In this document: positions 1 through 35,545 of the stretch, piece after piece
Numbering within the stretch: position 1 is the first letter of the stretch
Layout of the letters: each line of letters starts with the position of its first letter
Source: Bdellovibrionaceae bacterium UBA2339
Lineage (GTDB): Bacteria; Bdellovibrionota; Bdellovibrionia; Bdellovibrionales; JAMPXM01
NCBI GenBank assembly: GCA_002344785.1
Contig: DDUL01000033.1
Span: 43,238-107,237, forward strand
Length of the DNA: 64,000 nucleotides
Direction of reading: 5' to 3'
Program-made: the position numbers and the translations under genes
Notes under the pieces: generated by a model
What the model saw: only the letters and a program-made list of their open reading frames with translations
Databases searched by the model: none
Told to the model about the DNA's origin: nothing

Positions 1-2
1 AA

Positions 3-797: not shown

Positions 798-891
798 TGG
801 CCGCGATTTGAGAACCTCTGGACTTTGAGCTTGCATTGAATTGCGGCTCGGGGACAAAATTAGAGCCTGAGCAGGTAGGAAGGAGACACGG

Positions 892-2958: not shown

Positions 2959-3033
2959 TCGGCACTGATCGATGCAACTCTCGATGCTTTAAGGGAAATT
3001 TTTCGGGCTCGAATTGATGGCTGCGCCGACTTC

Positions 3034-6663: not shown

Positions 6664-6886
6664 GGTGAGCTTTCAGAGCGCCTCAAAATGAGACGATTTG
6701 CGACGATTTCGCTAGCTACAACTCATTTTCAATCACCGAATTGCCGATAAATTATTGTGCGATAAATCGAGTGGACTCGAAGGTTTACCGAGCTCACTTG
6801 ATTTGATCCCGCACTCCGAATTCGTCGACATCATGCTTGCGATGTCACGATCGGCACTTCGCGTTTTTCGGAACGAGGGAGCTTGC

Positions 6887-8679: not shown

Positions 8680-8734
8680 CAAGCCACAATCGGCTCGAGC
8701 GCTCCTCCCTATGAACCTTCAAATTTTCTAGCTC

Positions 8735-8757
8735 GACTCCTGTCGAGGAGTCTTCTT
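8735..8757 (+). terminator. intrinsic terminator candidate after 7603-8679
   Basis: GACTCCT-GTCG-AGGAGTC (7-bp stem, 4-nt loop) followed by TTCTT, lying 56 nt after the stop codon. Confidence 0.5.
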
Positions 8758-8841
8758 GAAGCAGCGGATTCGCGGTGAATTCTGCTGAGTTCTGCTACAC
8801 TGAGGAAGACTGCAATCACTTCTCATGGAGGAGAAGCCGGT

Positions 8842-10515: not shown

Positions 10516-10526
10516 GCTGAAATTTT

Positions 10527-10563
10527 GAGCTGAAGATCTGAGCCGAAGATCTGAGCCGAAGCG
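10527..10563. repeat. 13-bp tandem repeat, about 2.8 copies
   Basis: The copies are gagctgaagatct, gagccgaagatct and gagccgaagcg, located directly after the stop of 8842-10515. Confidence 0.8.
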
Positions 10564-10665
10564 TTCCTCGCCCCCGCGATGTGATCTCGAAAGAGATCGA
10601 AGTGAACGAATTGATTGAAGACAACTCGAAGATGAGCAATGACCTGACATCGGGTGGGGCACGTG

Positions 10666-12159: not shown

Positions 12160-12161
12160 AA

Positions 12162-20125: not shown

Positions 20126-20950
20126 TCAGCTTTGAGCGGATTTCTGCGATCGCATACGCTCTTCAAGTAATCGGCTTATAGGAATCAGTGTTGTTGTCAG
20201 AAAAATGGCGTACATCAAAGAATCGGGTCGCTCCAAGGCGCGGAAAAGCTGATCAAAGAAGACAATGCTCACAGCATAGAGCGCTTGGGTCCATCTTCTC
20301 TGCGGGGAAGTTGCGGGATCTGTCATCATGAAGAAAAAGGCGAGCAGAAAACCCGTTGAGTACATCGTTGGCCAATTGGCCAGGGCGGGGAAGCCGGCGA
20401 TGGACTCAAGCAACAATGCGCCAAGCGGATAGGCGATGAAAATCGCGACCAACATGGTCAGCTTCTTCGCTAGATAAAGCACGGGGATTCCGAATCCGAG
20501 AATGATCAAAGGGAAGATCCATGTGGTCCCCCATCTTGAGCCTTGAGTGACAGCCTCGGACGGCCACACAAGCAAAGCCACGACAATTCCAAAGTTAGAA
20601 GGGTTGAGAAAGTGTCGACCTCGAAACAAAAGCACATATTTGGAGATCACAGCTAAAACACTGGCAGCAATCAAAAAGGGTAGGTCCGCGCGCAAATTGA
20701 AGATCACGCTGCTGGCCAAGGAGATCGAACTGAGTGGTAAGTCTCTCAAACTTAACTGTTTAAGATTCCACTTCAATGAATGAGAACCAGAAATCGCCTT
20801 GAGCAGTCGATCTAACAAAATTACGCCGAAGATCATCCCGATGACTTCCACCGCGGATAGATTGAGGTAGTCGAGTATCAAGGCGCTGGACAGCAGTGAA
20901 ATTTGGAATGCCAATGCCAGCCATTTGAAATTAAAGGTCGAGTGTTTCAT
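20126..20950 (-). CDS. NqrB/RnfD-like polytopic membrane protein (orphan), module 2
   Basis: 274 aa with multiple TM segments. GRHFLNPSNFGIVVALLVWP and FFFMMTDPATSPQRRW match the two signature stretches of the NqrB/RnfD family. No [ST]GAT flavinylation motif is present. The start overlaps the stop of 20947-22869 (ATGA). Confidence 0.65.
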   Translation of the reverse strand: MKHSTFNFKWLALAFQISLLSSALILDYLNLSAVEVIGMIFGVILLDRLLKAISGSHSLKWNLKQLSLRDLPLSSISLASSVIFNLRADLPFLIAASVLAVISKYVLLFRGRHFLNPSNFGIVVALLVWPSEAVTQGSRWGTTWIFPLIILGFGIPVLYLAKKLTMLVAIFIAYPLGALLLESIAGFPALANWPTMYSTGFLLAFFFMMTDPATSPQRRWTQALYAVSIVFFDQLFRALERPDSLMYAIFLTTTLIPISRLLEERMRSQKSAQS

Positions 20951-22869
20951 TTCGACCCGCGCCGAATGAGGATGTAGGAGTTGAGTTCTCGAGAATGAAG
21001 GGGACGAAAGCTTCTCGTTCCATCAGGCCAGCGAACGACCAAGGAGAGTTCGCCTTTGATCTCTTCAGGTGAAATGCCAAAGACCAATCTTGAATCACTT
21101 TGCGCCATATAACCATTGAGCGGGTACAAACTGCGAAGTCGACGATGTTGTCGGTCGACGGCCAGAACCACTTGTGCGCCCCAAGCTTGGCGGTTGCCAG
21201 GGGACCCTTCATCAAGGAGGGAAACACCGATCCAATTGGTCGCACCTTTGGTGTGAGTGGAATTGGGGTGATCATGGGTCTCGTCCTGATTCTCGTCTCG
21301 AGGAGAATTGATGAGCAATTCAGGTTTGGCGTTCTGATTTGCGATCGCAAGATCAACTCGTCCATCATTATTAAAGTCCGACGCCGCGACTCCTCGTGCA
21401 TCTTTTCGGCTGGTGGCTCCAACAATCTCAGACACATCCCAATATCGACCGCGTTCGAAAGTGAATAAACAGTTTCGCTGTCGGTCCGCAAAATTTTTGC
21501 TCCGCATATTGGGGGATCGAAAGCGATCATCCTCCATGAGAAAAGTGGGAAGGCTCGCGGTCGTCATTGACTCGTAGACATAGGACTCCCGCACGCCTTC
21601 TCGCGTGATGTTCCCATTGCTGACAAAAAGCTCAAGCTGGCCGTCAAGATCAAAGTCCACCGCTTTGGGTGCCCAGGCCCAACCACAATTGTGCAGACGA
21701 TGCTCTTTCGCTGAGTTCGTGTCGAAGCGACCACTTCGATTGAGGAAAAAATTATTTCCCCAATTCACCATACGATCCTCAAAAATCACGGCGGAAAACA
21801 CATCTTCGCGGAGATCATTGTTGAAGTCGGCCACTTCAACACCCATTCCCGAATTGGTTGAAACTCGCTTAAGCGTTGGTCGGCCCAGCGCAAACTTTCC
21901 TTCGCCGCGATTCAAATAATAGAAGTCTCGTCCCCAGCCATTGCCAAAATAAAGATCCAACTTTCGATCTCCATTGAGATCCAAAACTGCCACCGACCAG
22001 AGCCAGGCTTTGATGTCGCCGAGGCCAGCTTCCTGAGTCACATCGACAAACGACCTGCCTTGCTGATTCTTGAGTAAATGAATTCGGGACCCATTGCTGG
22101 GTTGGTTGGTCGAATCCCAGAGGACTCGACTATGAAGTGGATTGAGAAGATCGAAGCCCTCTTGGCTCCAATAAGTGAGAATCAGATCCAGCCAACCATC
22201 TTGGTTGAAGTCGAAGACATTTAAACCTGTTCCGTAACCACACAAGTCTTGGGGAATTAGATCCCGTCTTTCCGTAAAGGCCGCAGCAGCTGATCGTCTT
22301 GCCTGATTCACAAATAGTGTTGAGCAGCCACTGAGTCGATGCACAAACAAGTCATCGTCACCATCGCCATCGAAATCGAAAAACGCCACTGGGCCGCTTT
22401 GGGCATTTTGATTGATCAGATCCAAGCCAGATTGAGCCGCAACTTCATTGAAGCCTCGACCTTTCAGATTGAGATAAAGATGTGGCTTGGACCCGAGTTT
22501 ATTGTTTGCGAAAAAAACATCCATCCAGCCATCTTTGTTGAGATCTACAGTCGCCACAGCTGCGCCATTTGTCGTGAATCGGGGGGCCAGATTGACGAGC
22601 TGAGTTTCCGAGGGATCAGCGATCGGGCCCTCATTCACAAAGTGGATCCCCAGTTCATCAGCTCGATCAATCAATTGAAAGTTCGGAGCACGCCCACTCC
22701 AGCCCTGAAGTCCTCGAGAGTCTTGGTAGGAGGCGTTGCTTTCCGAGAAGGGTTCATAACGGGGCGTTGCGAATGCGACCAAGGCACCAAGGCTCAATGC
22801 AACACAGGCCTGAGCCAGGTCCTTGTTGAAGTGCAGGGCTTTGAGAAATTGAGCCCACTCGAGTTTCAT
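20947..22869 (-). CDS. exported FG-GAP/VCBS-repeat protein with UnbV/ASPIC C-terminal domain (CRTAC1-like), module 2
   Basis: 640 aa with a signal-like N-terminus. The Ca-type loops are DLNKDGWMDVFF, DFDGDGDDDLFV, DFNQDGWLDLIL, DLNGDRKLDLYF, DFDLDGQLELFV and DFNNDGRVDLAI. The C-terminal sequence is TNWIGVSLLDEG..WGAQVVLAV..YPLNGYMAQSDSRLVFGI. Confidence 0.8.
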   Translation of the reverse strand: MKLEWAQFLKALHFNKDLAQACVALSLGALVAFATPRYEPFSESNASYQDSRGLQGWSGRAPNFQLIDRADELGIHFVNEGPIADPSETQLVNLAPRFTTNGAAVATVDLNKDGWMDVFFANNKLGSKPHLYLNLKGRGFNEVAAQSGLDLINQNAQSGPVAFFDFDGDGDDDLFVHRLSGCSTLFVNQARRSAAAAFTERRDLIPQDLCGYGTGLNVFDFNQDGWLDLILTYWSQEGFDLLNPLHSRVLWDSTNQPSNGSRIHLLKNQQGRSFVDVTQEAGLGDIKAWLWSVAVLDLNGDRKLDLYFGNGWGRDFYYLNRGEGKFALGRPTLKRVSTNSGMGVEVADFNNDLREDVFSAVIFEDRMVNWGNNFFLNRSGRFDTNSAKEHRLHNCGWAWAPKAVDFDLDGQLELFVSNGNITREGVRESYVYESMTTASLPTFLMEDDRFRSPNMRSKNFADRQRNCLFTFERGRYWDVSEIVGATSRKDARGVAASDFNNDGRVDLAIANQNAKPELLINSPRDENQDETHDHPNSTHTKGATNWIGVSLLDEGSPGNRQAWGAQVVLAVDRQHRRLRSLYPLNGYMAQSDSRLVFGISPEEIKGELSLVVRWPDGTRSFRPLHSRELNSYILIRRGSK

Positions 22870-22975
22870 GAATTCGCCTCTCCCTCTCGAGTTTAATCCT
22901 CAGTGCTTCGCCTTGACCAGTACTCTGGCGCAGTTTGAGTCAGCTTGTCGCCGCTTCACGAGCTTAAAATGGGCC

Positions 22976-23911
22976 TCAATCGTTCGTGTGGGATGCCATG
23001 CTGACGCTTGCGATCTTGTGCGACTTGGCTTCAGAAATTTCGCAACTTTCACCTCTGACAAGTCGATAGGCGAACCATCCACTTTGAACGAAAACGTAGG
23101 CCAATAGATCCGGCATGACGATGAGAAGTGACCTCAGTACAAGATCGACGACTCCAATCAAGAATCCGAACGCCCATTGCTCTTTGCGCCGGCGCGGGCT
23201 GGTTTGCGGGTCCGTTATGATATTGAAGGTAAAAATCATGGACCCAAGTGACCCCAATGTCGCGATCCAAAATAGTGGCCCGAGTGTTTGAGTCGCCCAG
23301 ATCGGACGGAGATCAAGCCAGCTTCCGACGTAGTGCCAGGCGAGACTCGCAAGACTCAAACCCAACACATAGCTCATTGAGATCCACAATCCTTTCGCAA
23401 GCCATGCGACGGCGATGGCTAACGGCAATGCCCAAACATGAACGTGCCAAAAGTCACCCCAAGAAGTGCCGCCGTAAGTGAGGTGTTGAGGAAGGAGCGT
23501 GATGGCTAAAACCGATGCGATTGCCGAAGGGTTGTAAACATGCCGACCGTCAGGACCAATCAACCAGATCTTGGAAATGAAAATGAAAAGTCCAGCGATC
23601 GCCAGAGCCGGGTAGCTAAAGGCCTCGACATTCACAAATAATGAAATCGTGGCGGCCACGATGTTGAGCCGTATCCAAGCATGCGAACCAGTTTCAGGAG
23701 CAGGAGTGACTTTCGGGTGGGATTGGAGATGTGCGAATCTGCGGAGAGCATAGTCGATCAAAACATGCGTCGACAGTAGGGCAAAAAACCAAACTAATGG
23801 ACGAGGATGAGCGGCGAAATTGAGTGCGAAACCGATGTAGACGATTTGCGTGAGGACTTGAACAGCCAATGTTGGTGTCAGTGAGACTCCAAATATTCGT
23901 TTGAAGTTCAT
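22976..23911 (-). CDS. NqrB/RnfD-like polytopic membrane protein (orphan), module 1
   Basis: 311 aa and paralogous to 20126-20950. It carries GRHVYNPSAIASVLAITLLP and FTFNIITDPQTSPRRRKEQW. The start overlaps the stop of 23908-25899 (ATGA). Confidence 0.65.
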   Translation of the reverse strand: MNFKRIFGVSLTPTLAVQVLTQIVYIGFALNFAAHPRPLVWFFALLSTHVLIDYALRRFAHLQSHPKVTPAPETGSHAWIRLNIVAATISLFVNVEAFSYPALAIAGLFIFISKIWLIGPDGRHVYNPSAIASVLAITLLPQHLTYGGTSWGDFWHVHVWALPLAIAVAWLAKGLWISMSYVLGLSLASLAWHYVGSWLDLRPIWATQTLGPLFWIATLGSLGSMIFTFNIITDPQTSPRRRKEQWAFGFLIGVVDLVLRSLLIVMPDLLAYVFVQSGWFAYRLVRGESCEISEAKSHKIASVSMASHTND

Positions 23912-25899
23912 GGTTCAATCACCTCAATGGCTTGGCCGAGCTGATCCGGAAGACCCAAAGTCTGAGTCTGGCCACTCGGCCAAATCACCTGAATGGATTC
24001 AATTCGTTCACTCTCTTGAAAAGTGAGGAAGACTCGGCTTGAGTTCTGCGACTGCATGCCATTGAGCGGCTGATTTTCTCTCCGGAAACTTCGAATTGAG
24101 GTTTTGACTTCAACGATCGTGCCGAGACCGTCAATGTTGGACTTTCGGCCGACGAACTTGAGACTCAGCCATCGACCTGGGTTTCGTCCGCTCTCTGTCA
24201 GCTGACTGCGATACAAAATCGGACCGTGGTAAGGGCCGCCCATAACCAGATCCAAATCGCCATCTTGATCCAAATCCGCGTAGGCCAATCCGCGACCAAT
24301 CCGAGAATCCGCAAATCCAATTGCCTCAGCTCGATCGACAAAGTGACCCGTGGAATCTTGCTCATAGAGGCACTTCTTTTGTTCGGCGGCGACACTCGCC
24401 CGAGGATCTCGCCGCATCAGCTGTCGGGAAATTTCTGGTCCAGCAAACTCAAGTAAGGCTGTCGGCAAGCCAGCTGTGAACTCGAAGACATACCAATGTC
24501 TTTCGTCACTCTTAGGAAAGCCAAACCAGCCATTGATAACGGCCAAGTCGAAGTCCCCATCATGGTCGAAATCAAGGAACTGACTGGCCCAAGACCAACC
24601 GCAGGAGTCAACGCCTCGCTGTAGAGCTTCGTCGCGAAATCCCTCGAGGGCCATCGCGGGCGTGGAGCTTTCCGTGGCCGTTCGCCCTGAGCTCTCAGAT
24701 TTGGTCTGACCCATCCACAAACTGTTCAGCCCGCGCATGAGTCCAGGCTTGGGCTTATTTGTGACATAAACATCGCCAACACCATTGTGGTCCAAATCCT
24801 CAATCGCGGCCGACATCGAATTTCGTGACCGCAATTGGCCCAGATGTTGTTTCGTTTGATCAGCAAAGCGTCCGCCGCCTTGGTTAATGAGAAGTTGATC
24901 GCGCGCGAAGTCTTGTCCCAGAAAGATGTCCCATCGACCGTCACGGTTAAAGTCCGACACACCCACGGCCCAGGTGGTGCTCGCCTCTGGAAGTGGATCT
25001 GCCTCGTGCCACTGAAGGGGAGGCGGGTGAGCGTGGGGCGAAGCTGCGTTTGGCGATTGTTTGATTGAGTTTGAAACTGCGGCGCTTCGATTGAGAAAGA
25101 GCCGATCTCGGCCAGCTTGAGTATTTCGAATTTGATTGGTGCCAAAGGTGGTCACCATGGCGCGTCTCAAAAAACGCTCGCGTCGATGCGGCACCTCAAG
25201 ATCGCGATAGTTGGCAAAATAGAGATCCAACTTCCCATCGCCGTCGGCATCAAACACATGCATGCCACGAGGTTCAATATACAAATTCAGTTGATGAATC
25301 AGCGCAAATCGAACTGTTCGCGATGGCGACGCAGATTTAACACTTTGTCTTTGCAGTTCAAAAAACAACACCGGAGTTCCAACTCCCGCAACGATCAAAA
25401 GCGGGTGACCTCGACCGTCAAGATCGGCGCACGCCAATGCCGTGCTTCGATGGTCCGCGGGCAAGAGTTGATCAAGGCCCCATTCGGACGTGACATCCTT
25501 GAACTGTCGACCTTGCTTTAAGCTTTGATAAACTCGTAATTTGCCAAATTGAGTGGGCTCGTTGTGGAGACTGATGAGATCCTCCCATCCGTCTCGGTCC
25601 AAGTCACAAATCACAATAAAGCCAGGCATACGCCGAGACCACGGACCAAAATCCTCCATGGGTCGAGCCGGAGGACCTAAAATTGAGACTGTATCATCGA
25701 GAAAAAGCGGTTCCGACTTATGCGTTTGCGTGCTCGCGGCTGCGAGCCCTAGGGCGTAGGAGTCAGATTGGGGAGGAATTGCACCGGTGAATTTGCCAAG
25801 GACCAGTGCGAGAAAGGGCGTCAGGGCGACGAGCCAAAATGGCCAATTCGCTCTGTCGCGAAGCCTCGGGTAGTCCGACTGTTGTTGCCTCTTGCTCAT
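23908..25899 (-). CDS. membrane-anchored FG-GAP/VCBS-repeat protein with UnbV/ASPIC C-terminal domain (CRTAC1-like), module 1
   Basis: 663 aa with N-terminal anchor WPFWLVALTPFLALVLG. The loops are DLDRDGWEDLI, DADGDGKLDLYF, DFNRDGRWDIFL, DLDHNGVGDVYV, DFDHDGDFDLAV and DLDQDGDLDLVM. The C-terminal sequence is GRWLSLKFVGRKSNIDGLGTIVEVKT..QPLNGMQSQNSSRVFLTF. Confidence 0.8.
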   Translation of the reverse strand: MSKRQQQSDYPRLRDRANWPFWLVALTPFLALVLGKFTGAIPPQSDSYALGLAAASTQTHKSEPLFLDDTVSILGPPARPMEDFGPWSRRMPGFIVICDLDRDGWEDLISLHNEPTQFGKLRVYQSLKQGRQFKDVTSEWGLDQLLPADHRSTALACADLDGRGHPLLIVAGVGTPVLFFELQRQSVKSASPSRTVRFALIHQLNLYIEPRGMHVFDADGDGKLDLYFANYRDLEVPHRRERFLRRAMVTTFGTNQIRNTQAGRDRLFLNRSAAVSNSIKQSPNAASPHAHPPPLQWHEADPLPEASTTWAVGVSDFNRDGRWDIFLGQDFARDQLLINQGGGRFADQTKQHLGQLRSRNSMSAAIEDLDHNGVGDVYVTNKPKPGLMRGLNSLWMGQTKSESSGRTATESSTPAMALEGFRDEALQRGVDSCGWSWASQFLDFDHDGDFDLAVINGWFGFPKSDERHWYVFEFTAGLPTALLEFAGPEISRQLMRRDPRASVAAEQKKCLYEQDSTGHFVDRAEAIGFADSRIGRGLAYADLDQDGDLDLVMGGPYHGPILYRSQLTESGRNPGRWLSLKFVGRKSNIDGLGTIVEVKTSIRSFRRENQPLNGMQSQNSSRVFLTFQESERIESIQVIWPSGQTQTLGLPDQLGQAIEVIEP

Positions 25900-26314: not shown

Positions 26315-28768
26315 ATGGTGACTTTTTCTCGCGGAAAACATGATCGCAAGATCTTCGTCGCCGTCAGTATGTTGTTGAGTTTCGTGGCATTCGTCGTCGT
26401 CGCTTGCCAGAGCGTTCGCACAAAGTCTCCTCAGACTGACGGCCATGCTCCCATCGATTCCTATACCGCTCAAGAAGACCAGTTCCTAAAGTCTCGCATT
26501 CCCTTCCCCGGACCTGACGCCGAGATCTTTGTTTTGTCGGGAATTGGTGGGCCAGAGTGTGCCGAGTTTTTGAAGTTGGACTACTGTCAGTTCGCGCTCA
26601 AGTGCAACGCAAAGATCGCCAAGCTGTTGGACGAGCGACTGAAAGAGCCGGGGCTTACGCCCGAACGAAGATTTGAGTTGATGACTCGAAGAGCGAATCG
26701 CGAATGGTATCTTGCGGAAAGACCCGACGAGGCCGTTCGGCGATTTGATGACGCTCTCGAATACTATCGCGGAGCTCGGTCAGCGGATCCTCAGCATGGA
26801 GGTTCGCCCGAGGCCACTCGTATCGAGTGGTTGGCGTTGACACAAGCCGGAGTGTCTTGGCTGCGATATGGGGAAGTTCGAAACTGTGTTGAAAATCACA
26901 ATGCCGACAGCTGCCTGTTTCCCTTGTCGAGATTGGCACAGCACCGGCGAAAGGAAGGAGCTGCGAAGGCTGCGGCCTACTTCGAGCAGGCCTTGAAGAT
27001 TCGCGAGACCTCGCACCTCATTTGGCTCTACAGTATCGCGCATCAAGCGCTTGGAACGTCGACGGATCAGATTCCGAAAGCATGGAGATTGCCAAAGACA
27101 GCACTTAAGGCTTTGGGAGCTGGAAGTTTGGAAGACGGACTCCTTCGATTCGAAGATTGGGCATCCTCTCTGGGATTTCAAAGCCGTCAAGACACCGGCG
27201 GTGCAAATGCGCAAGCGCAAGATTTCAATGGCGACGGACGCTTGGATTTGATTCAAGGCGGGCGAAATGCTTGCTCTCCGATCAAACTCTACTGGGGGAC
27301 AGAAGAAGGTTTCGAAAGCGCGAAGTTAGATCCTCGGCATCGAATTTTGACGAGCGCCAACGCCGTCACCAACATACTCAGCGCGGACGTGGATAATGAT
27401 GGCGATTTGGATCTCTACTTAGTTCGCGGTGGTTGGGTGACATCCGACTCCGCGCCAATCTTGCATAACGAGTTGCTCCTCAATGATGGCAAAGGCCGCT
27501 TCAAGCGTTCAGCGCAGAGCCCGCTGAATCCAGCGGGCAATCGTAGCGTGGCGGCACTCTTTGCGGATTTCGATTTAGATGGTTGGATTGATTTGTTTGT
27601 TTGCGATGAAGTGAGTGGCCCCGAATTGCATCAAGGTGGTCGAAAGGGTTTTCACCGCGTGCAAACGAACGGTGGATTATCTTATCAAGGAGTTTGCAAG
27701 GGGGCCGCGGCCGGTGACCTGGACGGTGATGGACGACCTGAGCTGTTTATTGGGCTCTATGGGCGAGACAATCAGCTCTACAAAAATGTCTCGACAATTG
27801 GAGAGCTCAGGTTTGAACCCATCACTCATTCACCCGCGACAACTCGACCGCAATTTGCATTTCCCGCTGCATTTGCGGACTTTAATAATGATTCGCACCT
27901 GGATTTGTTTGTGGGAAGCTTCTATCGCGATACAGGAAACTATGCGCGATTTGTACTGGGTCGAGATTTTAAGCCCGAGGTCTCTCGAATTTTCTTGAAT
28001 GATGGTCGCGGGCAATTGATCGACCGCACCGATGATTTGGGATTTGCAAATCCCGCACAGACCATGGGGTCTGGACTGGCCGATCTCAATGGCGATGGCT
28101 GGATGGACATACTTCTCGGCACAGGATCTGTCAGCTACGGTGATCTGGTTCCCAACTTGGTATTCATCAATCGCGCGGGGAAGAAATTTGTCGAACGTGG
28201 AACTGAATTGGGAATGTCGTCCTTGCAAAAGGGGCATGGTGTTGTGACCGCCGACTTTGACGGTGATCTGAAGTCCGACATTTTTTGGGTCAATGGCGGT
28301 ACGATTCCAGGGGACAACTATTTCCCATCACTCTATCGAAACTCGTCCTCTCGAAACTCTTGGATCGGTTTGGAGCTGGAAGGTGTGACGGCAAATCGAA
28401 GCGCCATTGGAGCTAAGGTCGAAATCGAAGTTGAAGAAGACCTTGAAAGTGAAAACACCTCCTCTTCGGGTTCAACACAAAAAGCAAAGCTGAGTTCACG
28501 TCGCATTGTACGGCACGTGGGGCTTCACTCGAGCTTTGGCAGCGAGTCGCTTCGTCTCAATATAGGACTGGGAGCGACAAAGAAAATTAGACGGCTGAGC
28601 ATACATTGGCCCAATCGAACTCGACGTGTAGACTCATATACTGAGGGTTTGGAAGTTGGGCGGTCATATAGAATTCGCGAGGGTGACGCGCCAAAGGTCG
28701 TGAGTTGGCCCAAAGCAAATTGGCCGAATCGCTTGGAGGCAGGCTCGCCACACCATCATCATGAGTGA
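26315..28768 (+). CDS. lipoprotein: helical-repeat N-domain + FG-GAP/VCBS repeats + UnbV/ASPIC domain (CRTAC1-like)
   Basis: 817 aa with AAGGATAAGGG upstream of the ATG. Lipobox FVAFVVVAC. A ~300-aa helical, TPR-like region comes first. The loops are DFNGDGRLDL, DVDNDGDLDLY, DFDLDGWIDLF, GDLDGDGRPELF, DFNNDSHLDLF, DLNGDGWMDIL and DFDGDLKSDIF, followed by NSWIGLELEGVTANRSAIGAKVEIEV. The protein ends ..SPHHHHE. Confidence 0.85.
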   Translation: MVTFSRGKHDRKIFVAVSMLLSFVAFVVVACQSVRTKSPQTDGHAPIDSYTAQEDQFLKSRIPFPGPDAEIFVLSGIGGPECAEFLKLDYCQFALKCNAKIAKLLDERLKEPGLTPERRFELMTRRANREWYLAERPDEAVRRFDDALEYYRGARSADPQHGGSPEATRIEWLALTQAGVSWLRYGEVRNCVENHNADSCLFPLSRLAQHRRKEGAAKAAAYFEQALKIRETSHLIWLYSIAHQALGTSTDQIPKAWRLPKTALKALGAGSLEDGLLRFEDWASSLGFQSRQDTGGANAQAQDFNGDGRLDLIQGGRNACSPIKLYWGTEEGFESAKLDPRHRILTSANAVTNILSADVDNDGDLDLYLVRGGWVTSDSAPILHNELLLNDGKGRFKRSAQSPLNPAGNRSVAALFADFDLDGWIDLFVCDEVSGPELHQGGRKGFHRVQTNGGLSYQGVCKGAAAGDLDGDGRPELFIGLYGRDNQLYKNVSTIGELRFEPITHSPATTRPQFAFPAAFADFNNDSHLDLFVGSFYRDTGNYARFVLGRDFKPEVSRIFLNDGRGQLIDRTDDLGFANPAQTMGSGLADLNGDGWMDILLGTGSVSYGDLVPNLVFINRAGKKFVERGTELGMSSLQKGHGVVTADFDGDLKSDIFWVNGGTIPGDNYFPSLYRNSSSRNSWIGLELEGVTANRSAIGAKVEIEVEEDLESENTSSSGSTQKAKLSSRRIVRHVGLHSSFGSESLRLNIGLGATKKIRRLSIHWPNRTRRVDSYTEGLEVGRSYRIREGDAPKVVSWPKANWPNRLEAGSPHHHHE

Positions 28769-28967: not shown

Positions 28968-29678
28968 TTGCATATGCATAGCTCAACTCGATCAACAGAC
29001 AAGGTGAATATTGAGACCTGGGAGCAGAGTCTCGTCGCTGAGGTCGAAGGCTCCTATGCTCATAATAGTCGGCTCTATTCAGCTTTGGAGGCGTCCGCCC
29101 GAGGCGAGGAAATTCACCGATTCTATTCCTTCGATGCCCATCAGCCTCCGTTTTTCAAGTTTCTGCAGCTGTGGCTTCCGAAAGCCGAAGGCTTAGTCAA
29201 AGACGCGCTCTTGAAACATATCGAAGAAGAAGTTTCCGAAGAGCATTCGCGCCTCTTTCAAGACATGATGAAGGTGCTCGCCATTGAGTATCCGATCTCC
29301 CAGACCATGGCCGACGTCCCTCAGCTTCGGGAGTTGAATTATGTGTTCTCGGAAGCCTGCGCGCGTGAGCAGAGCCTCGGATATTTTTGCGGCTGCTTTT
29401 TCGCGACTGAAATGATGTCCGCGAAGCGCTGTGCGCAAACACTAAAAGGCCTGCGTCGAATTGGTTTTCCCGAGACTGCACTTCGCTACCTCATCATTCA
29501 CGCTGAAGCGGACACCTCACATGCAGAATTGGCCATGCGAGATTTCATCCGGCCATTTGTGACGACACAGACGGATCAGATTGCGGCGCGGGCCGAAGTG
29601 GAAAAGGGTCTTAGAGATCGACTCCGAAGATCAGAGAATTTCATTCGCTGGTATGAAACTCAATTCGAACAGACTTAA
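28968..29678 (+). CDS. heme-oxygenase-like di-iron enzyme (CADD/PqqC-type 'iron-containing redox enzyme' family)
   Basis: 236 aa and all-helical in character. The ligand-type pattern is E-x6-H (EEEVSEEH), a central FATEMM Glu, and H-x3-D-x2-H (HAEADTSH). This is the spacing known for CADD-like HDO proteins. Confidence 0.7.
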   Translation: MHMHSSTRSTDKVNIETWEQSLVAEVEGSYAHNSRLYSALEASARGEEIHRFYSFDAHQPPFFKFLQLWLPKAEGLVKDALLKHIEEEVSEEHSRLFQDMMKVLAIEYPISQTMADVPQLRELNYVFSEACAREQSLGYFCGCFFATEMMSAKRCAQTLKGLRRIGFPETALRYLIIHAEADTSHAELAMRDFIRPFVTTQTDQIAARAEVEKGLRDRLRRSENFIRWYETQFEQT

Positions 29679-29695
29679 GTCGAAGAGGCCACGCG

Positions 29696-30697
29696 ATGAG
29701 TTCAAAGTCGAATTCAGATTCATCGGACGCATCGGGATCAAGATTGGGTCCTGGAGGTTCTGAAATTCCGAATCAAACCCAAGGGGTAGCTTCGGCTGTT
29801 TCCGCTCAGGCCAACATGCAAGAGAACATCGAAAGCAAGCTGGAAAGCAAGCTGCTCACCGAGTTTCCCGCGTGGTTGAAGCGATGGCCCAAGTTGAGAA
29901 GTGAACTGCATCAGGTGGCCTGGATCGGTAGTCTTGCGCACGGAGGATTCTCCGAAGTCTACTCCGACTTCGATTTGGCGCTATTTCTCACAACTTCAGC
30001 TCACGATGTGGAAGCGAACGCGCAGTTTGCGGACTTGGTGGCTCAGTTGCCAATGCCAGATCGGTGGTCAATTTTCTGGGCGAAGCTGGAGCCCCGCCCA
30101 TCCGGTTCCAAGCCGCGCGGATTGCAGATTGGTCGATTTCCAAACCTCGACCAAGTCGACTACTTAGATCATGGCCACGTCATTTGGGATGCAACCGTGC
30201 ATCCAGGGGAAGCGGACTCTTCGAAGCTCATCGAGCAATCAGCACTCCGGCGAATGCAGGCATCATCGAGTTTGACTGAAACCCTGCGACTTGAAATTGC
30301 TCGTCCAAGCCTAGCCCAAATTCGTGAGCATCTTCGTCAAGAGTCCATTCCTTACTGGTCAGATCTGCTCGTGAAGCTCGAGGCCCATCCCTCAGGGGGA
30401 AGAACCTCAATGTACTATCCTGATAAGTCACTTGTTCGATTGGCCCTCTATCCTTCGCGCTTTCATTTCACATGGGTGACGGGGCGTGTGGATTCCAACG
30501 AGGCCGCGACTCGCTTTTGTGAATCTCGCGATTGGTTCGACCGAGATCTTGTCGATGCGGCGTTGTACTTTCGGCGCCTCCGGTTGAGTGACGTAGGAGA
30601 ACTCGAATCGAAGGCCTTTGCGATGCACCATAAAGTCATCACTGACCTGAAGAGACTCCGAGCTCAGCTGGTGCAAGCCTTTACGGAGATTGCGTGA
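29696..30697 (+). CDS. nucleotidyltransferase-domain protein (ANT(3'')/AadA-like layout)
   Basis: 333 aa. GSLAHGGFSEVYSDFDLALFL is the Pol-beta-type G-S..D-x-D NTase signature, as in AadA (GS..D.DLLV). It has a long helical C-terminal region and a Ser-rich N-terminus. Confidence 0.6.
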   Translation: MSSKSNSDSSDASGSRLGPGGSEIPNQTQGVASAVSAQANMQENIESKLESKLLTEFPAWLKRWPKLRSELHQVAWIGSLAHGGFSEVYSDFDLALFLTTSAHDVEANAQFADLVAQLPMPDRWSIFWAKLEPRPSGSKPRGLQIGRFPNLDQVDYLDHGHVIWDATVHPGEADSSKLIEQSALRRMQASSSLTETLRLEIARPSLAQIREHLRQESIPYWSDLLVKLEAHPSGGRTSMYYPDKSLVRLALYPSRFHFTWVTGRVDSNEAATRFCESRDWFDRDLVDAALYFRRLRLSDVGELESKAFAMHHKVITDLKRLRAQLVQAFTEIA

Positions 30698-31677
30698 AAC
30701 CAGAAGATGTTGGGAATTCAGAATTGAGCTCGTCGGTCGGAGTGGATTCGACGCGGATGACAAGCATGGTCTGTGTTGCGTTGTTGCTCTCAATTCTTGT
30801 CCCCGGAGTTTTGATCACCCAGTGGATTCCTCGCGAGGGGTGGGGCTGGTTGGTGTGGACACTTCTTTGGATTTGGGTCGCAGCGCGCCAACATAGCTTG
30901 TATGTTCTCAACCACGAAGCGAGCCACGGTCTACTCTTTGAAGTCACTGGCTATGGCGCAAACACAGAACAAAAAAATCGTCTCTTCGCCGAAGTCTTTT
31001 GCTTGTGGCCTTTCTTCCATCATCCCGAGGCCTTTTCCTTTGTGCTCTGGCGTCGGGTGCATCGACTTCATCACGCCCATCTTTTCACGTCGAATGATCC
31101 AAATTTCGTAGGTCGATCTCATCAAGGCCAAACTCAGCACCCACTGTCGAATCTCGAAATAGCGAAGTCGTGCGCCCGCGCGCCTTGGGATGCTCTGCGT
31201 ACCATGCTGATCGGTGAGCAGGATTATGTTGGTCCCGATGAATCGCGAAGTTGGAATCAACGCAAAGTTGGTCACTGGCAAATTCTGTTGGACTGGCAGG
31301 GCTTGCATCGGGAAGACCCCGAGTTGGCGTCTGAGCAGCGTCGAAAGCTCGGGGTCCTACTCTTGAGTTTGTTGATTTTCACGGTGCTGGGTTGGCAAGG
31401 GCATTTGTTTTGGCTCTGGCTCGTACCGATGTGGACAATATACCCGATGATATTGCGCTGGAACGATCTTACCGAACACAATTGGTCCGAGAAGAGCGGT
31501 GATCTAAGGGCGCAGACAAATACTCGTGCTGATCGTTGGTGGACGCTTCTTGTGTTGAGCGACTTAGGTCGGCATTTTCATTGGGAGCACCATCTCAATC
31601 CCAAGGTGCCATGGTGGAAAATGAGGGGCTATTCGCGACAGCTCGCTGCTTCGGGTCGCTCACTTCATGGTCCATAA
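30694..31677 (+). CDS. membrane fatty-acid-desaturase-family di-iron enzyme
   Basis: GTG 30694 overlaps the upstream stop (GTGA). Three His boxes are present (HEASH, HRLHH, HWEHH) together with TM segments in the pattern of the fatty acid desaturase family. Confidence 0.8.
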   Translation: MKPEDVGNSELSSSVGVDSTRMTSMVCVALLLSILVPGVLITQWIPREGWGWLVWTLLWIWVAARQHSLYVLNHEASHGLLFEVTGYGANTEQKNRLFAEVFCLWPFFHHPEAFSFVLWRRVHRLHHAHLFTSNDPNFVGRSHQGQTQHPLSNLEIAKSCARAPWDALRTMLIGEQDYVGPDESRSWNQRKVGHWQILLDWQGLHREDPELASEQRRKLGVLLLSLLIFTVLGWQGHLFWLWLVPMWTIYPMILRWNDLTEHNWSEKSGDLRAQTNTRADRWWTLLVLSDLGRHFHWEHHLNPKVPWWKMRGYSRQLAASGRSLHGP

Positions 31678-31755
31678 GGGCCGATCTAATGCCCCGACGT
31701 CAAAAAGGCGGGGTTTGAGTTTGCCTCGCCAACTAAAGCATTGTCAGATAGAGGC

Positions 31756-32871
31756 ATGCGCCAAAAACAAATCCATTCGCATCGAGGTTTCTCTACAGTC
31801 GATCTCGTCTTGCTTGGACTTATACTCGTTTCAATTGGCTTCATCGCTTGGAAATTGTTCGGCTTAAGATCGGCCAAGCAAGCTCCGCGGGCGGTGGCTG
31901 TTCAAACCGATGTCGTGTCACCTCCGGCTCCTGCACAAAGTGAAAACAAAATTGAGGATCCGCTGCAAAAGGCCATCGAGCGACAAGATCTCGTGTGGCG
32001 CCTCTCCCAGGTCTCAACCACGGATTGGGAAAAGCTTTTGACCATGCCCTCATTGCGTCCAGCATTGATACGTGAAACTGAAACCTGCCAGTTTGCTCCG
32101 GATCGAAACCATCTCAATTTCATTTCCAAAAAGGTCATTGACGCAGTTCTCGCCAAACAGACGCAAAGTTTGGTGGTTCATATGGCCAGGTCGTGTTTCC
32201 GAGTCGGAGGCCAGGCTCAGCTTGTTTATCATAATTTTTCAGACTCAGGTGTTGCCACGCGCGATCTCGGGGCGATCGACGTGAGGGCCATTCTGCAAAT
32301 CGGTGATGGAGGCAGTTTAGCGCCTGAAGTTTACGGCCTTCTCAAAATCGATGCCGAGAGTCTCAAGAAGATCACTACGGTCGGGCGAGGGGCCGATGCG
32401 CAATTTGCCATATTGAGAGTCGAGAATCTAAGGCCCCCGAATGTCGAACAAAGCAAAAGGCCACCGCCGTCAGTGTTTCGATATCCGTCGTTCAACGCTC
32501 GAGGTGTGCAGCGTTTGAAATCATCGGGAGTCACAATCGCTGTTGTCGATGTGAGATCAGAGGCAGAGATCGCCGACTTTGCGATTCCAAACGCAATTAA
32601 GGTTCATTACGAAGTTCCGGATCTACCCGAAAAGGGTCGACGCTATGTTCCTGAGATCTCCATCGAACAACTGTCTAAGGCGAGTTTCAATGTCAGTGAG
32701 TTGGTTGAGTCGCAAAAAAATGCGGCGCGAACCCATTACATAGTGGTGGGCGCCGATGACTTTGACGGTCGACCATTTTGGTTCACTCGCGAAATGCTCA
32801 AGATGGGGATCGTGAACGCATCGTACTACCCAGCCGGAGCTGAAAGTCTCGCAGCGGCTCTCGTCGACTGA
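31756..32871 (+). CDS. pilin-like N-terminus + cysteine-less rhodanese-like domain protein (paralog A)
   Basis: The leader MRQKQIHSHRG-FSTVDLVLLGLILVSIGFIA matches the prepilin cleavage pattern except for Asp in place of Glu5. The C-terminal VTIAVVDVRSEAEIADFAIPNAIKV .. HYIVVGADDFDGRPFW follows a rhodanese layout, with the catalytic Cys loop replaced. It is paralogous to 53639-54859. The start could also be TTG 31741. Confidence 0.6.
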   Translation: MRQKQIHSHRGFSTVDLVLLGLILVSIGFIAWKLFGLRSAKQAPRAVAVQTDVVSPPAPAQSENKIEDPLQKAIERQDLVWRLSQVSTTDWEKLLTMPSLRPALIRETETCQFAPDRNHLNFISKKVIDAVLAKQTQSLVVHMARSCFRVGGQAQLVYHNFSDSGVATRDLGAIDVRAILQIGDGGSLAPEVYGLLKIDAESLKKITTVGRGADAQFAILRVENLRPPNVEQSKRPPPSVFRYPSFNARGVQRLKSSGVTIAVVDVRSEAEIADFAIPNAIKVHYEVPDLPEKGRRYVPEISIEQLSKASFNVSELVESQKNAARTHYIVVGADDFDGRPFWFTREMLKMGIVNASYYPAGAESLAAALVD

Positions 32872-34099: not shown

Positions 34100-34762
34100 T
34101 TAACTGATCGCCACTGGCTTGGCATCGGCTGCAATTTCCACGGGTGCGCCCGTGGCCTTTACAACATCTTCAGGTGACAAATCCGGTGCCCACTCGATGA
34201 GGCGGAACCCGCGACCTTTAACGACATCAAGCACCGCATAGTCCGTCACGATTCGCTCAACGACACCTAAGCCGGTGAGAGGCAAGCTGCACTTTTTGAG
34301 AATCTTGTGCGAGCCGTCCTTCGCGCAATGTTCCATGGCGACGATCACGCGGCGAGCTCCGGCCACAAGATCCATGGCTCCGCCCATGCCCTTAACCATT
34401 TTGCCAGGAATCATCCAATTGGCGATAGATCCATCGAGATCCACCTGCATGGCTCCCAGTACCGTCAGGTCCACATGACCACCACGAATCATGGCGAAGC
34501 TATCGGCGGAAGAGAAAAACGAAGCGCCGGGGACAGCTGTCACAGTTTGTTTGCCGGCGTTTATGAGATCTGGATCCACATCCTTCTCAAGAGGGAAGGG
34601 GCCCATGCCGAGTAGGCCATTCTCGCTTTGCAACATCACGCCCATTTCAGCTGGAATGAAGTTGGCAACCAAAGTCGGAATGCCAATTCCCAAATTCACA
34701 CAATAGCCAGGCTCGATTTCCTTGGCGATTCGCTTGGCGATCTGATCACGAGTCAAGGGCAT
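34100..34762 (-). CDS. scoB: 3-oxoacid CoA-transferase subunit B
   Basis: [34 protein letters not shown] are typical of the family I CoA-transferase beta subunit. ATG 34762 is preceded by GGAAGGAAAG, while the ORF-track start is TTG 34777. Confidence 0.92.
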
Positions 34763-34821
34763 AGTCTTTCCTTCCAAGTGTCTTCAATCATCAAATTAAA
34801 AAAACATCACTTCACAATGGG

Positions 34822-35520
34822 TCACTTCAAGCGAACGGTTCGCTGCTCAATTCGCTTTTCGAGCTTGGGCGAAACGATCATTCGTTGAACATAGATACCC
34901 GGGACATGAATGTTTTCTGGATCGAGGGACCCAAGCGGAACAATTTCTTCGACTTCGACAACGGTGATTCGTCCCGCGGCGGCCATCATGGGATTGAAGT
35001 TCCGCGCTGTTTTGCGAAACACGAGATTACCAAAGGGATCAGCTTTCCAAGCACGAATGAGTGCAAAGTCGCCGGTGATGCCTTTTTCCATGACATAGTG
35101 TCGACCGTTGAACTCGCGAGTCTCTTTACCGTCTGCCACAATCGTACCGTAACCCGTGGGCGTGTAGAACGCCGGAATGCCGGCTCCACCTGCGCGAATT
35201 CGCTCGGCCAACGTGCCTTGTGGGCAAAACTCCAATTCCAGTTCGCCGCTAAGGAACTGCTTTTCAAAGGTCGCGTTTTCTCCAACGTAAGACGACAACA
35301 TTTTTTTGATTTGCCGAGTGTGCAGCAAAAGCCCAAGGCCAAAGTCATCCACGCCAGCGTTATTGGAGACACACGTCAGATTCCTCACGCCTGAATCGCG
35401 AAGCGCGAGAATCAAGTTTTCCGGAATTCCGCACAGCCCAAAGCCGCCGACCAAAATTGTCATGCCATCTTTGACGCCATCAAGGGCAGCTTGAGCGGAA
35501 GGATAGAGTTTGTTTTTCAT
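34822..35520 (-). CDS. scoA: 3-oxoacid CoA-transferase subunit A
   Basis: [31 protein letters not shown] are typical of the CoA-transferase alpha subunit. It lies directly upstream of scoB. Confidence 0.92.
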
Positions 35521-35545
35521 CGATGTGTCCTCGTTTTGACTTCAA

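Follow-up and report, generated by a model that had tools for sequence, protein, structure and literature searches.

A rare and repeatedly conserved gene trio combining a heme-oxygenase-like di-iron oxidase, an AadA-like nucleotidyltransferase and a putative GntB-like membrane oxygenase

Gene layout and flanking regions

Three closely packed genes on the forward strand of the window, i.e. the whole stretch of 64,000 nucleotides that was analysed, code for a heme-oxygenase-like di-iron oxidase (HDO; gene 1), a nucleotidyltransferase (NTase; gene 2) and a membrane protein of the fatty-acid-desaturase (FADS) superfamily (gene 3) (Table 1). The arrangement described in an earlier sequence-only reading, with a 17-nt gap followed by a GTGA overlap, was matched exactly by the list of open reading frames (ORFs) and by the sequence itself. 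Gene 1 ends with TAA at 29676-29678 and the ATG of gene 2 stands at 29696; no terminator-like site was seen between the two genes in a sequence scan. The stop codon of gene 2 overlaps the GTG start of gene 3 in the tetranucleotide GTGA (30694-30697), which is preceded by GGAG, and the two genes are translationally coupled. For gene 1, the start codon is fixed only to within 12 codons: the ORF offers TTG at 28968 or ATG at 28974, and one source gives a product of 224 aa, corresponding to a start about 12 codons inside the ORF. A promoter and terminator scan of the region gave no signal above chance.

Table 1. Features of the gene trio and its surroundings in the window
Feature	Position	Strand	Description
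Two tandem pairs of genes for FG-GAP/ASPIC and RnfD/NqrB-like membrane proteins	20126..25899	-	Divergent to the trio (Pfam)
FG-GAP/ASPIC (CRTAC1-like) protein gene	26315..28768	+	FG-GAP_3 (3.7e-40) and UnbV_ASPIC (Pfam); directly upstream of gene 1
Gene 1	28968..29678	+	Soluble HDO, 236 aa (ORF list)
Intergenic spacer, 17 nt	29679..29695	+	Shine-Dalgarno-like GAAGAGG ahead of gene 2 ATG (sequence read directly)
Gene 2	29696..30697	+	Soluble, probably two-domain Pol-beta-fold nucleotidyltransferase, 333 aa (ORF list)
Gene 3	30694..31677	+	Integral-membrane di-iron oxygenase, 327 aa, GTG start (ORF list)
Gene 4	31741..32871	+	376 aa, N-terminal transmembrane segment, weak rhodanese-like C-terminus

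The FG-GAP/ASPIC protein encoded ahead of gene 1 has an N-terminal hydrophobic segment ending ...VVVAC, which we read as a predicted lipoprotein signal. Its orthologue stands immediately upstream of the HDO gene in four related loci (L001, L004, L005 and L018), in two of which (L005 and L018) the end of the FG-GAP/ASPIC gene overlaps the HDO start, and it is absent from the other loci with an HDO and a FADS (L006, L016, L017 and L019). In the lineage of the window the unit probably starts one gene earlier, at this lipoprotein gene. The FG-GAP/ASPIC and RnfD/NqrB-like pairs may also be associated with the trio, one such pair being found in different order, with 33-36% identity, downstream of an NTase::FADS fusion gene in L005.

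Gene 4, with a rhodanese match below the Pfam cut-off (E 7e-4), was found in the near relative L001 only (94% identity) and was not detected in L004, L005, L018 or L019. It was rejected as a fourth member, and is probably outside the unit, because it went undetected beyond that nearest relative. A defence-system reading of an NTase combined with a transmembrane protein was likewise discarded, with no PADLOC match for genes 1-4 or the FG-GAP gene.

The three proteins and their nearest relatives

Both oxygenase families were recognised well above chance, as the motifs seen in the sequence had suggested: gene 1 matches Pfam PF14518 with 88.2 bits against a cut-off of 28.9 (E 7.4e-25), gene 3 matches PF00487 with 79 bits against 29.7 (E 6.2e-22), and the key residues are invariant in homologues. 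In gene 1 the motifs are EEEVSEEH (E86-H93), FATEMM (E148) and HAEADTSH (H178/D182/H185). An alignment of 18 family members showed E88, H93, E148, H178 and H185 to be invariant and position 182 to be Asp or Glu, so that the predicted metal ligands are E88, H93, E148, H178, D182 and H185, i.e. three His and three carboxylates. H93, E148, H178, D182 and H185 align with the H, E and H-x3-D-x2-H of SznF and BesC, residues that we take to be metal ligands from the published structures. The E-x6-H spacing originally put forward as characteristic does occur in gene 1, but the invariant Glu of the first helix is E88 and not E86, and the spacing is therefore not a conserved feature of the family.

The AF2 model of gene 1 (pLDDT 92.6) consists of 11 helices, and a hydrophobicity scan found no transmembrane segment. 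HrmI was the best fold match in Foldseek (TM 0.76), followed by BesC, UndA (E 7e-4) and SznF; the probability was 1.00 for these four as well as for RohS and AetD. Together with the Pfam match, the alignment and the profile comparison, these data bear out the assignment of gene 1 as an HDO with a full ligand set.

The nearest solved relatives of gene 1 are HrmI and BesC (the latter from Streptomyces cattleya), which were its best matches by sequence, profile and fold, and not CADD. Gene 1, HrmI and BesC share the heme-oxygenase-like helical fold and aligned Glu/His/Glu/His-x3-Asp(Glu)-x2-His ligand positions, and all three are soluble proteins encoded in small tailoring clusters. Nevertheless, gene 1 is merely 17-21% identical to BesC and HrmI, lacks the N-terminal extension of about 110 aa seen in HrmI, and scores 28.1 bits against a cut-off of 500 for the BesC equivalog NF042919. 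Moreover, BesC and HrmI are partnered by Fe/2OG enzymes, namely the halogenase BesD and HrmJ, respectively, whereas the partners of gene 1 are a membrane FADS and an NTase. Within the HDOs, a small and distinct clade is founded here on gene 1. The clade is very rare, with 71 representatives at E <= 1e-3 among 1.84 billion in an exhaustive representative search, which was used in place of a word-indexed protein search that had returned just two homologues.

These comparisons leave very little room for a CADD-type role of gene 1 in p-aminobenzoate and folate synthesis with unrelated neighbours, an explanation that takes up the CADD lead of the sequence-only reading. The HDO fold is common to both, and gene 1 has a weak match to TIGR04305 (E 3.4e-5). 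However, that match reached 23.6 bits where the model requires 200, a profile comparison with the CADD-like structure 3b5o gave E 0.53, and CADD was absent among the top 50 fold matches. Furthermore, p-aminobenzoate synthesis leaves no role for a FADS and an NTase as obligate partners of gene 1, and the rarity of the clade is unlike a vitamin pathway.

Gene 3 was earlier taken for a membrane desaturase-superfamily enzyme with three His boxes, in agreement with its PF00487 match and with the invariance of the boxes H74-x3-H78, H123-x2-H126-H127 and H296-x2-H299-H300 throughout the family, where H67, H109, H110, H194 and H262 are invariant as well. The four transmembrane helices in two hairpins that mark the superfamily may correspond to hydrophobic regions at approximately residues 19-64 and 218-255; in a Kyte-Doolittle scan the hydrophobic stretches lie at 19-46 and 218-239, and another stretch rich in Trp and Leu comes after each of them. 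A sequence search returned no related solved structures. When 11 members of the gene 3 family were compared with NCBIfam, GntB came first for all 11 (best E 3e-26), though far below its cut-off, and in every case ahead of DesA/CrtW-type lipid enzymes, and on these family matches gene 3 is assigned to a GntB-like clade of the fatty-acid-desaturase superfamily. Its own score for the GntB equivalog NF041365 was 44.6 bits against a cut-off of 380, with the C-terminal third of the protein covered.

Gene 2 carries IGSLAHGGFSEVYSDFDLAL, and the Pol-beta NTase motif G-S-x(10-12)-D-x-D, here G78-S79...D91-x-D93, is invariant in 13 homologues. The protein itself has no Pfam match; in its family, 10 of the 13 members have a weak NTP_transf_2 match and just two match AadA_C (at 0.037). 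The family profile matches ANT(3'')(9)/AadA in both domains, but only at E 1.4e-6 (7uy4/4cs6/5lpa), and the 13 best fold matches, obtained with a model of pLDDT 75, were all AadA/AAD(9), though with TM no higher than 0.31-0.39. The suggested AadA-like layout is thereby probable for both domains, and gene 2 appears to be a distant two-domain AadA/ANT(3'')(9)-like nucleotidyltransferase. Common to it and to the AadA/ANT(3'')(9)/AAD(9) enzymes are the N-terminal Pol-beta NTase domain with G-S...D-x-D and, probably, a C-terminal helical domain with the motif ...R(I/F)xYSxxTG+xxS(K/N)DxA.... Identity to these enzymes is only about 13-16%, and gene 2 has in addition a disordered N-terminal tail (approximately residues 1-31) and a lineage-specific internal insertion (approximately residues 165-200). 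Enzymes of the AadA group are found on integrons or resistance islands, whereas gene 2 lies between oxygenase genes or is fused to one of them; such a context argues for a substrate other than streptomycin or spectinomycin. Its closest free-standing homologues (about 30% identity) occur in unrelated contexts.

Recurrence of the gene trio

A census of loci with HDOs of the gene 1 clade gave 12 loci, the window included. The order HDO-NTase-FADS, with genes overlapping or nearly abutting, was found in five of them (the window, L001, L004, L018 and L019), and in L005 the NTase is fused to the FADS in a single protein of 542 aa (P0019; 38% identity to gene 2, E 2e-37). Three loci (L006, L016 and L017) have the HDO and FADS without the NTase, two (L013 and L014) the HDO and NTase without the FADS, and one the HDO alone. 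Viewed from gene 3, a PF14518 HDO was encoded just upstream in 14 of 14 other loci of its family that were examined, comprising eight looked-up proteins and six genome loci (Nostoc, Burkholderia, two of Myxococcus, Corallococcus and one proteobacterial MAG).

The gene content around these loci is variable. In L013, an HDO with 43% identity and the NTase end an operon that holds two L-amino-acid ligases, an MFS transporter and an SDR, while the distant HDO-FADS pairs adjoin genes for BesB-like, MetX, Cys/Met-PLP and PLP-decarboxylase proteins. Accessory genes of loci other than the window include L-amino-acid ligases, an MFS transporter, PLP enzymes and acyltransferases. FA_hydroxylase and MBOAT genes are among the neighbours in L006, and in L019 an AMP-binding (acyl-activating) gene overlaps the HDO gene, with a PS-decarboxylase gene nearby.

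The order of the three genes is kept down to 31-48% identity, with overlaps and one NTase::desaturase fusion, which upholds the view that they belong together; we consider it highly probable that they form one functional cassette. The trio is functionally linked, rare, repeatedly conserved and once physically fused. That the genes are neighbours merely through collinearity of close relatives could be argued from L001, which is collinear with the window over the whole 17 kb, unrelated housekeeping genes included. Yet neighbouring genes of these families recur in at least 11 further loci, where the flanks differ and identities are 31-56%, and accidental adjacency, to which we assign next to no probability, is already refuted by the synteny and fusion data. 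The bracketing of an NTase by two di-iron enzymes, which the sequence-only reading emphasised, is seen in the window; the order is however not essential, and either the NTase or the FADS is optional.

This optional presence also bears on the role of gene 2, which could be non-biosynthetic and serve self-protection, regulation or scaffolding, adenylylating a toxic product or AMPylating a partner enzyme, with the chemistry left to the HDO and FADS. HDO-FADS arrangements without the NTase occur in three close and six distant loci, the solved relatives of gene 2 are resistance enzymes, and gene 2 diverges much faster than its neighbours (58% identity to L001 against 82-99%). On the other side, fusion to the FADS and translational coupling between the two oxygenase genes are more in keeping with a pathway enzyme than with a resistance gene, there are HDO-NTase pairs without FADS, and the catalytic G-S...D-x-D is strictly conserved. 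We regard a non-biosynthetic NTase as rather improbable.

Proposed substrate and chemistry

Our preferred reading is that the trio forms one cassette whose enzymes would act in a three-step relay on a shared small-molecule substrate, most probably an amino acid or a derived amine or peptide; the probability of this proposal as a whole is about 0.45. Gene 3 would hydroxylate an unactivated side-chain C-H at a cytoplasmic di-iron site. Gene 2 would then move AMP from ATP onto the new hydroxyl, activating or marking it, for instance as a leaving group, and the HDO would use O2 to oxidise that same molecule, through N-oxygenation, desaturation or cleavage of a C-C bond. The families, their intact motifs, the coupled translation, the repeated pairings and the single fusion are seen in the data, whereas the class of substrate, the individual reactions and the sequence in which they run are inferred: an amino-acid-type substrate has an even chance, and the exact sequence of hydroxylation, adenylylation and HDO oxidation is doubtful.

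An amino-acid substrate is suggested by the fold and profile neighbours of gene 1, namely HrmI, an N-oxygenase whose product-bound entry 9nh9 holds N6-hydroxy-L-lysine, and BesC, a 4-chloro-allylglycine synthase. The amino-acid ligases and PLP enzymes encoded at related loci point the same way. For gene 3, GntB serves as a precedent of an FA_desaturase-superfamily membrane protein acting on a free amino acid, L-arginine of the guanitoxin pathway; it is a transmembrane enzyme producing gamma-hydroxy-L-arginine (bioRxiv 10.1101/2023.03.21.533663). Adenylylation of a hydroxyl is consistent with the sole solved relatives of gene 2, all of them O-adenylyltransferases of small-molecule hydroxyls. 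The di-iron site of membrane desaturases faces the cytoplasm; assuming this for the fusion protein, its N-terminal NTase would be placed beside the di-iron site of the FADS. We know of no HDO or NTase partner in the guanitoxin cluster. A search for literature support for GntA as an HDO of that cluster found none, and GntA came up solely in a paper on heme-dependent YqcI/YcgG guanidine N-hydroxylases. GrbE was dropped as a lead for a further FADS: AglA belongs to the heme-dependent YqcI/YcgG family (PMC12866846), and GrbE is therefore not a FADS.

Several observations restrain the relay. Similarities to characterised enzymes are remote (GntB, 44.6 of 380 bits; BesC, 28 of 500; AadA, E ~1e-6), and their chemistry is therefore not confidently transferable. 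As the NTase is dispensable in three loci and the FADS in two, a strict three-step relay is not universal. The conserved neighbours in the lineage, exported FG-GAP/ASPIC and RnfD-like membrane proteins, suggest an envelope-related role and not a secreted metabolite. It should also be mentioned, against the proposal, that the cluster of the window is itself without a ligase, NRPS, PLP enzyme, exporter or reductase.

The envelope neighbours would suit a lipid-modifying cassette, in which an acyl chain or a membrane aminolipid would be the target of desaturation or hydroxylation by the FADS, and the HDO would act on a fatty acid in the manner of UndA or on the Orn/Lys head group of an aminolipid, yielding an envelope product, possibly with the FG-GAP lipoproteins. 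Gene 3 is a genuine membrane member of the FA_desaturase superfamily, the fold matches of the HDO include UndA, and the genes near the HDO in L006 and L019 fit a lipid as well. However, gene 1 is nearer to HrmI and BesC than to UndA, the FADS family prefers GntB over lipid enzymes, it is hard to see what an AadA-like NTase would do on a lipid chain, and other loci carry amino-acid ligases and PLP enzymes. We find a lipid cassette unlikely, and the same evidence turned against the lipid-like or aromatic metabolite first suggested for this locus.

Within the amino-acid reading, a more specific variant, which we hold to be a speculative and improbable one, is a cryptic hydroxylation-adenylylation that would yield an unsaturated, strained or N-oxygenated amino acid. 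The membrane hydroxylase would add a side-chain OH, the AadA-like enzyme would turn it into an O-AMP leaving group, and the BesC/HrmI-like HDO would cleave or oxidise the activated intermediate. In function, the O-AMP step would parallel the cryptic chlorination that BesD performs on the way to terminal-alkyne amino acids. On this variant, the GntB-like FADS family would more broadly be an obligate partner of HDOs, and the two would represent a previously unrecognised module of two di-iron enzymes across Bdellovibrionota-like MAGs, Myxococcota, Burkholderia and Nostoc.

Among other known systems, UndA and UndB also represent the HDO and membrane FADS-like superfamilies, each making 1-alkenes from fatty acids; they come without an NTase, and they stand further from gene 1 and gene 3 than do BesC/HrmI and GntB, respectively. 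UndA and UndB are not known to be encoded together, each being an independent alternative to the other. In MboA/MboB (mangotoxin) and other clusters of an HDO with an ATP-grasp ligase (PMC13185094), HDOs tailor amino-acid or peptide side chains in compact operons. L013, with its HDO of the gene 1 clade, two L-amino-acid ligases and MFS transporter, resembles MboA-type clusters, whereas the cluster of the window has a FADS and an NTase but neither a ligase nor an MboB-like flavin/Fe2S2 reductase. A literature search for a cluster of an HDO with a desaturase or desaturase-like enzyme surfaced just papers on MboA and on UndB, in which no such pair is described, in line with the earlier statement that the combination is not a recognised one.

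The range of unusual amino-acid reactions (C-H, C-C and N-oxidation) ascribed to HDOs is growing fast. To our knowledge, little work has gone into membrane desaturase-like enzymes with soluble substrates, GntB being the one precedent used here, and the specialised metabolism of Pseudobdellovibrionaceae and their uncultured relatives is little studied. The conserved, sometimes fused trio marks out a new clade of HDOs that has a fixed partner, points to nucleotidylation as a means of activation in between two oxygenations, and offers a compact three-gene target for heterologous expression from these bacteria. Culturable entry points are provided by the HDO-FADS pairs found more widely, in Myxococcus, Corallococcus, Burkholderia and Nostoc. 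The cassette of this predatory-type bacterium most likely tailors an amino-acid-derived small molecule.

Linkage of the three genes across loci

Genes 1-3, coding for a heme-oxygenase-like di-iron oxidase (HDO), a nucleotidyltransferase (NTase) and a membrane desaturase-superfamily enzyme (FADS), are functionally linked, and we estimate at about 0.8 the probability that they work as a single functional cassette on a common substrate. Coordinates of the sequence-only reading, with its three plus-strand genes, 17-nt gap and GTGA overlap, were reproduced exactly by the ORF list and the sequence, and all motifs quoted in it were found in genes 1-3. The TAA stop of gene 1 is followed by 17 nt containing GAAGAGG and by the ATG of gene 2, while the stop of gene 2 and the start of gene 3 overlap in GTGA, with GGAG ahead of the overlap. 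No terminator-like site was found between the three genes in a consensus scan, such scans performing at chance level overall.

We compared 12 loci with HDOs of the gene 1 clade, window included (loci elsewhere carry L handles). The order HDO-NTase-FADS was seen in five (window, L001, L004, L018 and L019; gene 3 identity 44-82%), and in L005 the HDO is followed by an NTase::FADS fusion protein (P0019, 542 aa), residues 21-200 of which show 38% identity to gene 2 (E 2e-37). HDO and FADS occur without NTase in L006, L016 and L017, HDO and NTase without FADS in L013 and in the incomplete locus L014, and HDO alone in L015. Gene overlaps of 4-30 nt are common across the loci, and the HDO was located directly upstream of FADS for 8/8 gene 3 family members looked up. 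Translational coupling, recurrent pairings and one fusion are thereby documented, and the earlier view that the three genes belong together is borne out. As a unit of three it needs adjusting: the conserved core is smaller (HDO-FADS), and in this lineage the unit is probably larger, with an FG-GAP gene added.

By genome scanning, FADS relatives at a greater distance (37-42% identity) were recovered from six further loci: Nostoc sp. S4 (L008), a proteobacterial MAG (L007), Burkholderia stagnalis LMG 28156 (L009), Myxococcus xanthus AM003 (L010), M. vastator AM301 (L011) and Corallococcus sicarius CA040B (L012). A PF14518 HDO of a longer type precedes FADS in all six, the pair being shown by tblastn in L010 and L011; the Nostoc HDO, the sole distant one compared with HrmI, matched it at E 6e-27. 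Because the flanks are wholly different among loci, the HDO/FADS adjacency is selected rather than inherited as collinearity.

Features of the window and of related loci (positions are those within each stretch)
Locus	Feature	Position	Strand	Details
Window	Two tandem divergent pairs	20126-25899	-	FG-GAP/ASPIC (CRTAC1-like) protein, then RnfD/NqrB-like membrane protein (~270-310 aa)
Window	Gene 1, HDO	28968-29678	+	236 aa
Window	Gene 2, NTase	29696-30697	+	333 aa
Window	Gene 3, FADS	30694-31677	+	327 aa
Window	Gene 4	31741-32871	+	376 aa; N-terminal TM segment; C-terminus weakly rhodanese-like, sub-threshold (E 7e-4)
Window	Thiolase, CoA-transferase subunits A and B	34100-36730	-	394, 232 and 225 aa; collinear with L001
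Window	Repeat-bearing protein	36911-38095	+	394 aa; N-terminal IIDIIDIIDIND repeat after hydrophobic segment
L001	FG-GAP/ASPIC and RnfD/NqrB-like pairs	1-4269		
L001	Gene 2 orthologue	8001-8981		
L002	Free-standing gene 2 homologue	6001-6753		~248 aa, ~30% identity; neighbourhood shared with L003, unrelated to cassette: dienelactone hydrolase, TctC, cupin_2, 4-OT tautomerase
L003	Free-standing gene 2 homologue	6001-6747		~248 aa, ~30% identity; neighbourhood as in L002
L005	FG-GAP/ASPIC and RnfD/NqrB-like pair	10091-12756		Downstream of fusion gene; 33-36% identity, order changed
L006	HDO-FADS context			DctP, DUF1513, FA_hydroxylase, MBOAT, cupin-8
L007, L009, L012	Annotated distant clusters			HDO of 383-394 aa (PF14518), GntB-like FADS, MBL-fold enzyme
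L008	Nostoc sp. S4 cluster	3636-12177		BesB-like PLP enzyme, MetX homoserine O-acetyltransferase, HrmI-like HDO, GntB-like FADS, SufS/EgtE-like PLP enzyme, GMC oxidoreductase
L013	One operon	2072-9403	+	SDR, 380-aa protein, L-amino-acid ligase, MFS transporter, second ATP-grasp ligase, HDO, NTase
L016	HDO-FADS context			BAHD-type transferase, JmjC/cupin-8, HDO, FADS; MFS and GNAT genes nearby
L019	Cassette context			AMP-binding enzyme overlapping HDO; PALP, PS-decarboxylase, GT2 and radical-SAM genes nearby

Affiliations of the encoded proteins

Gene 1 is an HDO, matching Pfam PF14518 at 88 bits (cut-off 28.9); its NCBIfam matches were all sub-threshold (BesC, 28 bits, cut-off 500; CADD, 23.6 bits, cut-off 200). 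When 1.84 billion representatives were searched exhaustively with HMMER, 71 proteins reached E <= 1e-3; roughly 17 were full-length relatives (E < 1e-24), and ten relatives checked were singleton metagenome clusters. The clade is rare and has few members. Across 18 aligned sequences E88, H93, E148, H178 and H185 were invariant, as were G142, G214, R218 and R221, with Asp or Glu at position 182; E86, the Glu of the earlier E-x6-H, is not conserved, and it is E88 that is kept. Profile alignment placed H93/E148/H178/D182/H185 on the matching His/Glu/His-x3-Asp-x2-His positions of solved HDOs. The AlphaFold2 model built on the same alignment (mean pLDDT 92.6) had HrmI (TM 0.76), BesC, UndA, SznF, RohS and AetD as its best solved-structure matches, and CADD was absent from the top 50. 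Against PDB sequences, the family profile found BesC (6e-8), HrmI (7e-8) and SznF (5e-4), and a CADD-like protein at E 0.53 only. The HDO assignment of the sequence-only reading is sound; among the classes it named for profile and structure comparison, BesC, UndA and SznF are among the best fold matches and CADD is not. The nearest known HDOs are BesC and HrmI, and the leaning towards CADD and p-aminobenzoate is not supported by the scores, E value and fold ranking.

Gene 3 matched PF00487 at 79 bits and has two putative hydrophobic hairpin regions; the three His boxes, which had suggested a membrane desaturase-type protein, and five further His are invariant in its family (11 sequences), in agreement with that suggestion. 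GntB was the best curated NCBIfam family for 11/11 members (best E 3e-26), all far below cut-off. GntB, the L-arginine gamma-hydroxylase of the guanitoxin pathway, is described as a transmembrane enzyme yielding gamma-hydroxy-L-arginine (bioRxiv 10.1101/2023.03.21.533663). No solved structure for gene 3 was detectable by sequence search, and its motifs and family matches place it in a GntB-like clade of the membrane desaturase superfamily.

Gene 2, a public copy of whose protein is labelled as derived from a Pseudobdellovibrionaceae MAG, itself had no match in Pfam or NCBIfam and only 12 homologues in a 5.8-billion-sequence index. Invariant in the family are G78-S79...D91-x-D93 and a C-terminal ...LYPxRF..TG...SN..A... 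motif; NTP_transf_2 was matched weakly by 10/13 members and AadA_C by 2/13. In ANT(3'')(9)/AadA the family profile matched the NTase domain as well as the helical one at the C-terminus (E 1.4e-6 to 6.7e-6), and the 13 best fold matches of the AlphaFold2 model (pLDDT 75) were all AadA/AAD(9) structures. It is a distant AadA-like nucleotidyltransferase in fold and layout, as the earlier 'AadA-like layout' had it, a statement that does not extend to membership of the resistance family. Residues 1-31 are disordered and of low complexity (pLDDT < 50 at residues 4-31), an insertion of ~35 residues (~165-200) is missing in other homologues, and identity to the L001 orthologue is only 58%, against 82-99% for the neighbours. 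Since free-standing homologues (~30% identity) sit in neighbourhoods unrelated to the cassette, the link of the NTase to HDO and FADS is specific to one sub-branch.

Gene contexts and substrate class

The L013 operon resembles a small peptide antimetabolite cluster. Both ATP-grasp enzymes are of L-amino-acid-ligase type, and its HDO and NTase, found without FADS, have 43% and 31% identity to genes 1 and 2. The Nostoc locus looks like a Bes-type unusual-amino-acid pathway with a membrane hydroxylase replacing the halogenase, its BesB-like enzyme scoring 471 bits against NF042918, below the cut-off of 800. The annotated distant clusters in L007, L009 and L012, a type of which we know of no earlier description, additionally contain a PLP decarboxylase (2/3), a 4-OT tautomerase (2/3) and a Cys/Met PLP enzyme (1/3); the gene order of this tier runs HDO, 4-OT tautomerase, FADS, MBL-fold enzyme, PLP decarboxylase. 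Read alongside the closeness of gene 1 to HrmI/BesC and of gene 3 to GntB, most contexts point to amino-acid-type chemistry rather than to the lipid-like or aromatic product guessed earlier. A lipid-type substrate has some support in the contexts of L006 and L019, and the chances of an amino-acid-type substrate are put at about even.

In the window, L001, L004, L005 and L018 the gene next upstream of HDO codes for an FG-GAP/ASPIC protein, and in L005 and L018 its end overlaps the HDO start. In the window, the N-terminal hydrophobic segment of this protein ends in ...VVVAC, which we read as a putative lipoprotein signal. L005, a distant relative, also keeps an FG-GAP/ASPIC and RnfD/NqrB-like pair beside the fusion gene. 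The association of the cassette with these neighbours is what speaks most strongly against a model of a simple secreted metabolite. Gene 4 was considered as a cassette member and excluded, being 94% identical in L001 and undetected beside the cassette in other loci. Further downstream, 34100-36730 looks like an acetoacetate/3-oxoacid utilisation operon, and the L001 orthologue of the repeat-bearing protein has a weak DUF4097 match.

Proposed chemistry and significance

Motifs predict genes 1-3 to be three catalytically intact enzymes. FADS, working at the cytoplasmic membrane face, would hydroxylate a C-H in the side chain of an amino-acid-like substrate, the AadA-like NTase would put AMP on that hydroxyl by O-adenylylation, and HDO would perform N-oxygenation, desaturation or C-C cleavage. 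This specific hydroxylate-adenylylate-oxidise relay is proposed with fairly low confidence; the steps could follow a different order, and loci that lack one of the partners may use a different enzyme in its place.

The superfamilies of all three proteins are known, yet no curated equivalog threshold (BesC, CADD, GntB) was passed, and defence-system models did not match the cassette. In a literature search, no paper was found to describe pairing of HDOs with membrane desaturase-like enzymes or with AadA-like NTases, in line with the earlier remark that the cluster was not recognised as a described one. We rate it as a small oxidative tailoring cassette, a known kind, in which two elements are new: HDO and FADS as partners, an apparently obligate association that has not been described, and the unusual presence of a nucleotidyltransferase inserted or fused within that pair. 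The clusters of L007 and L009-L012 offer culturable entry points.
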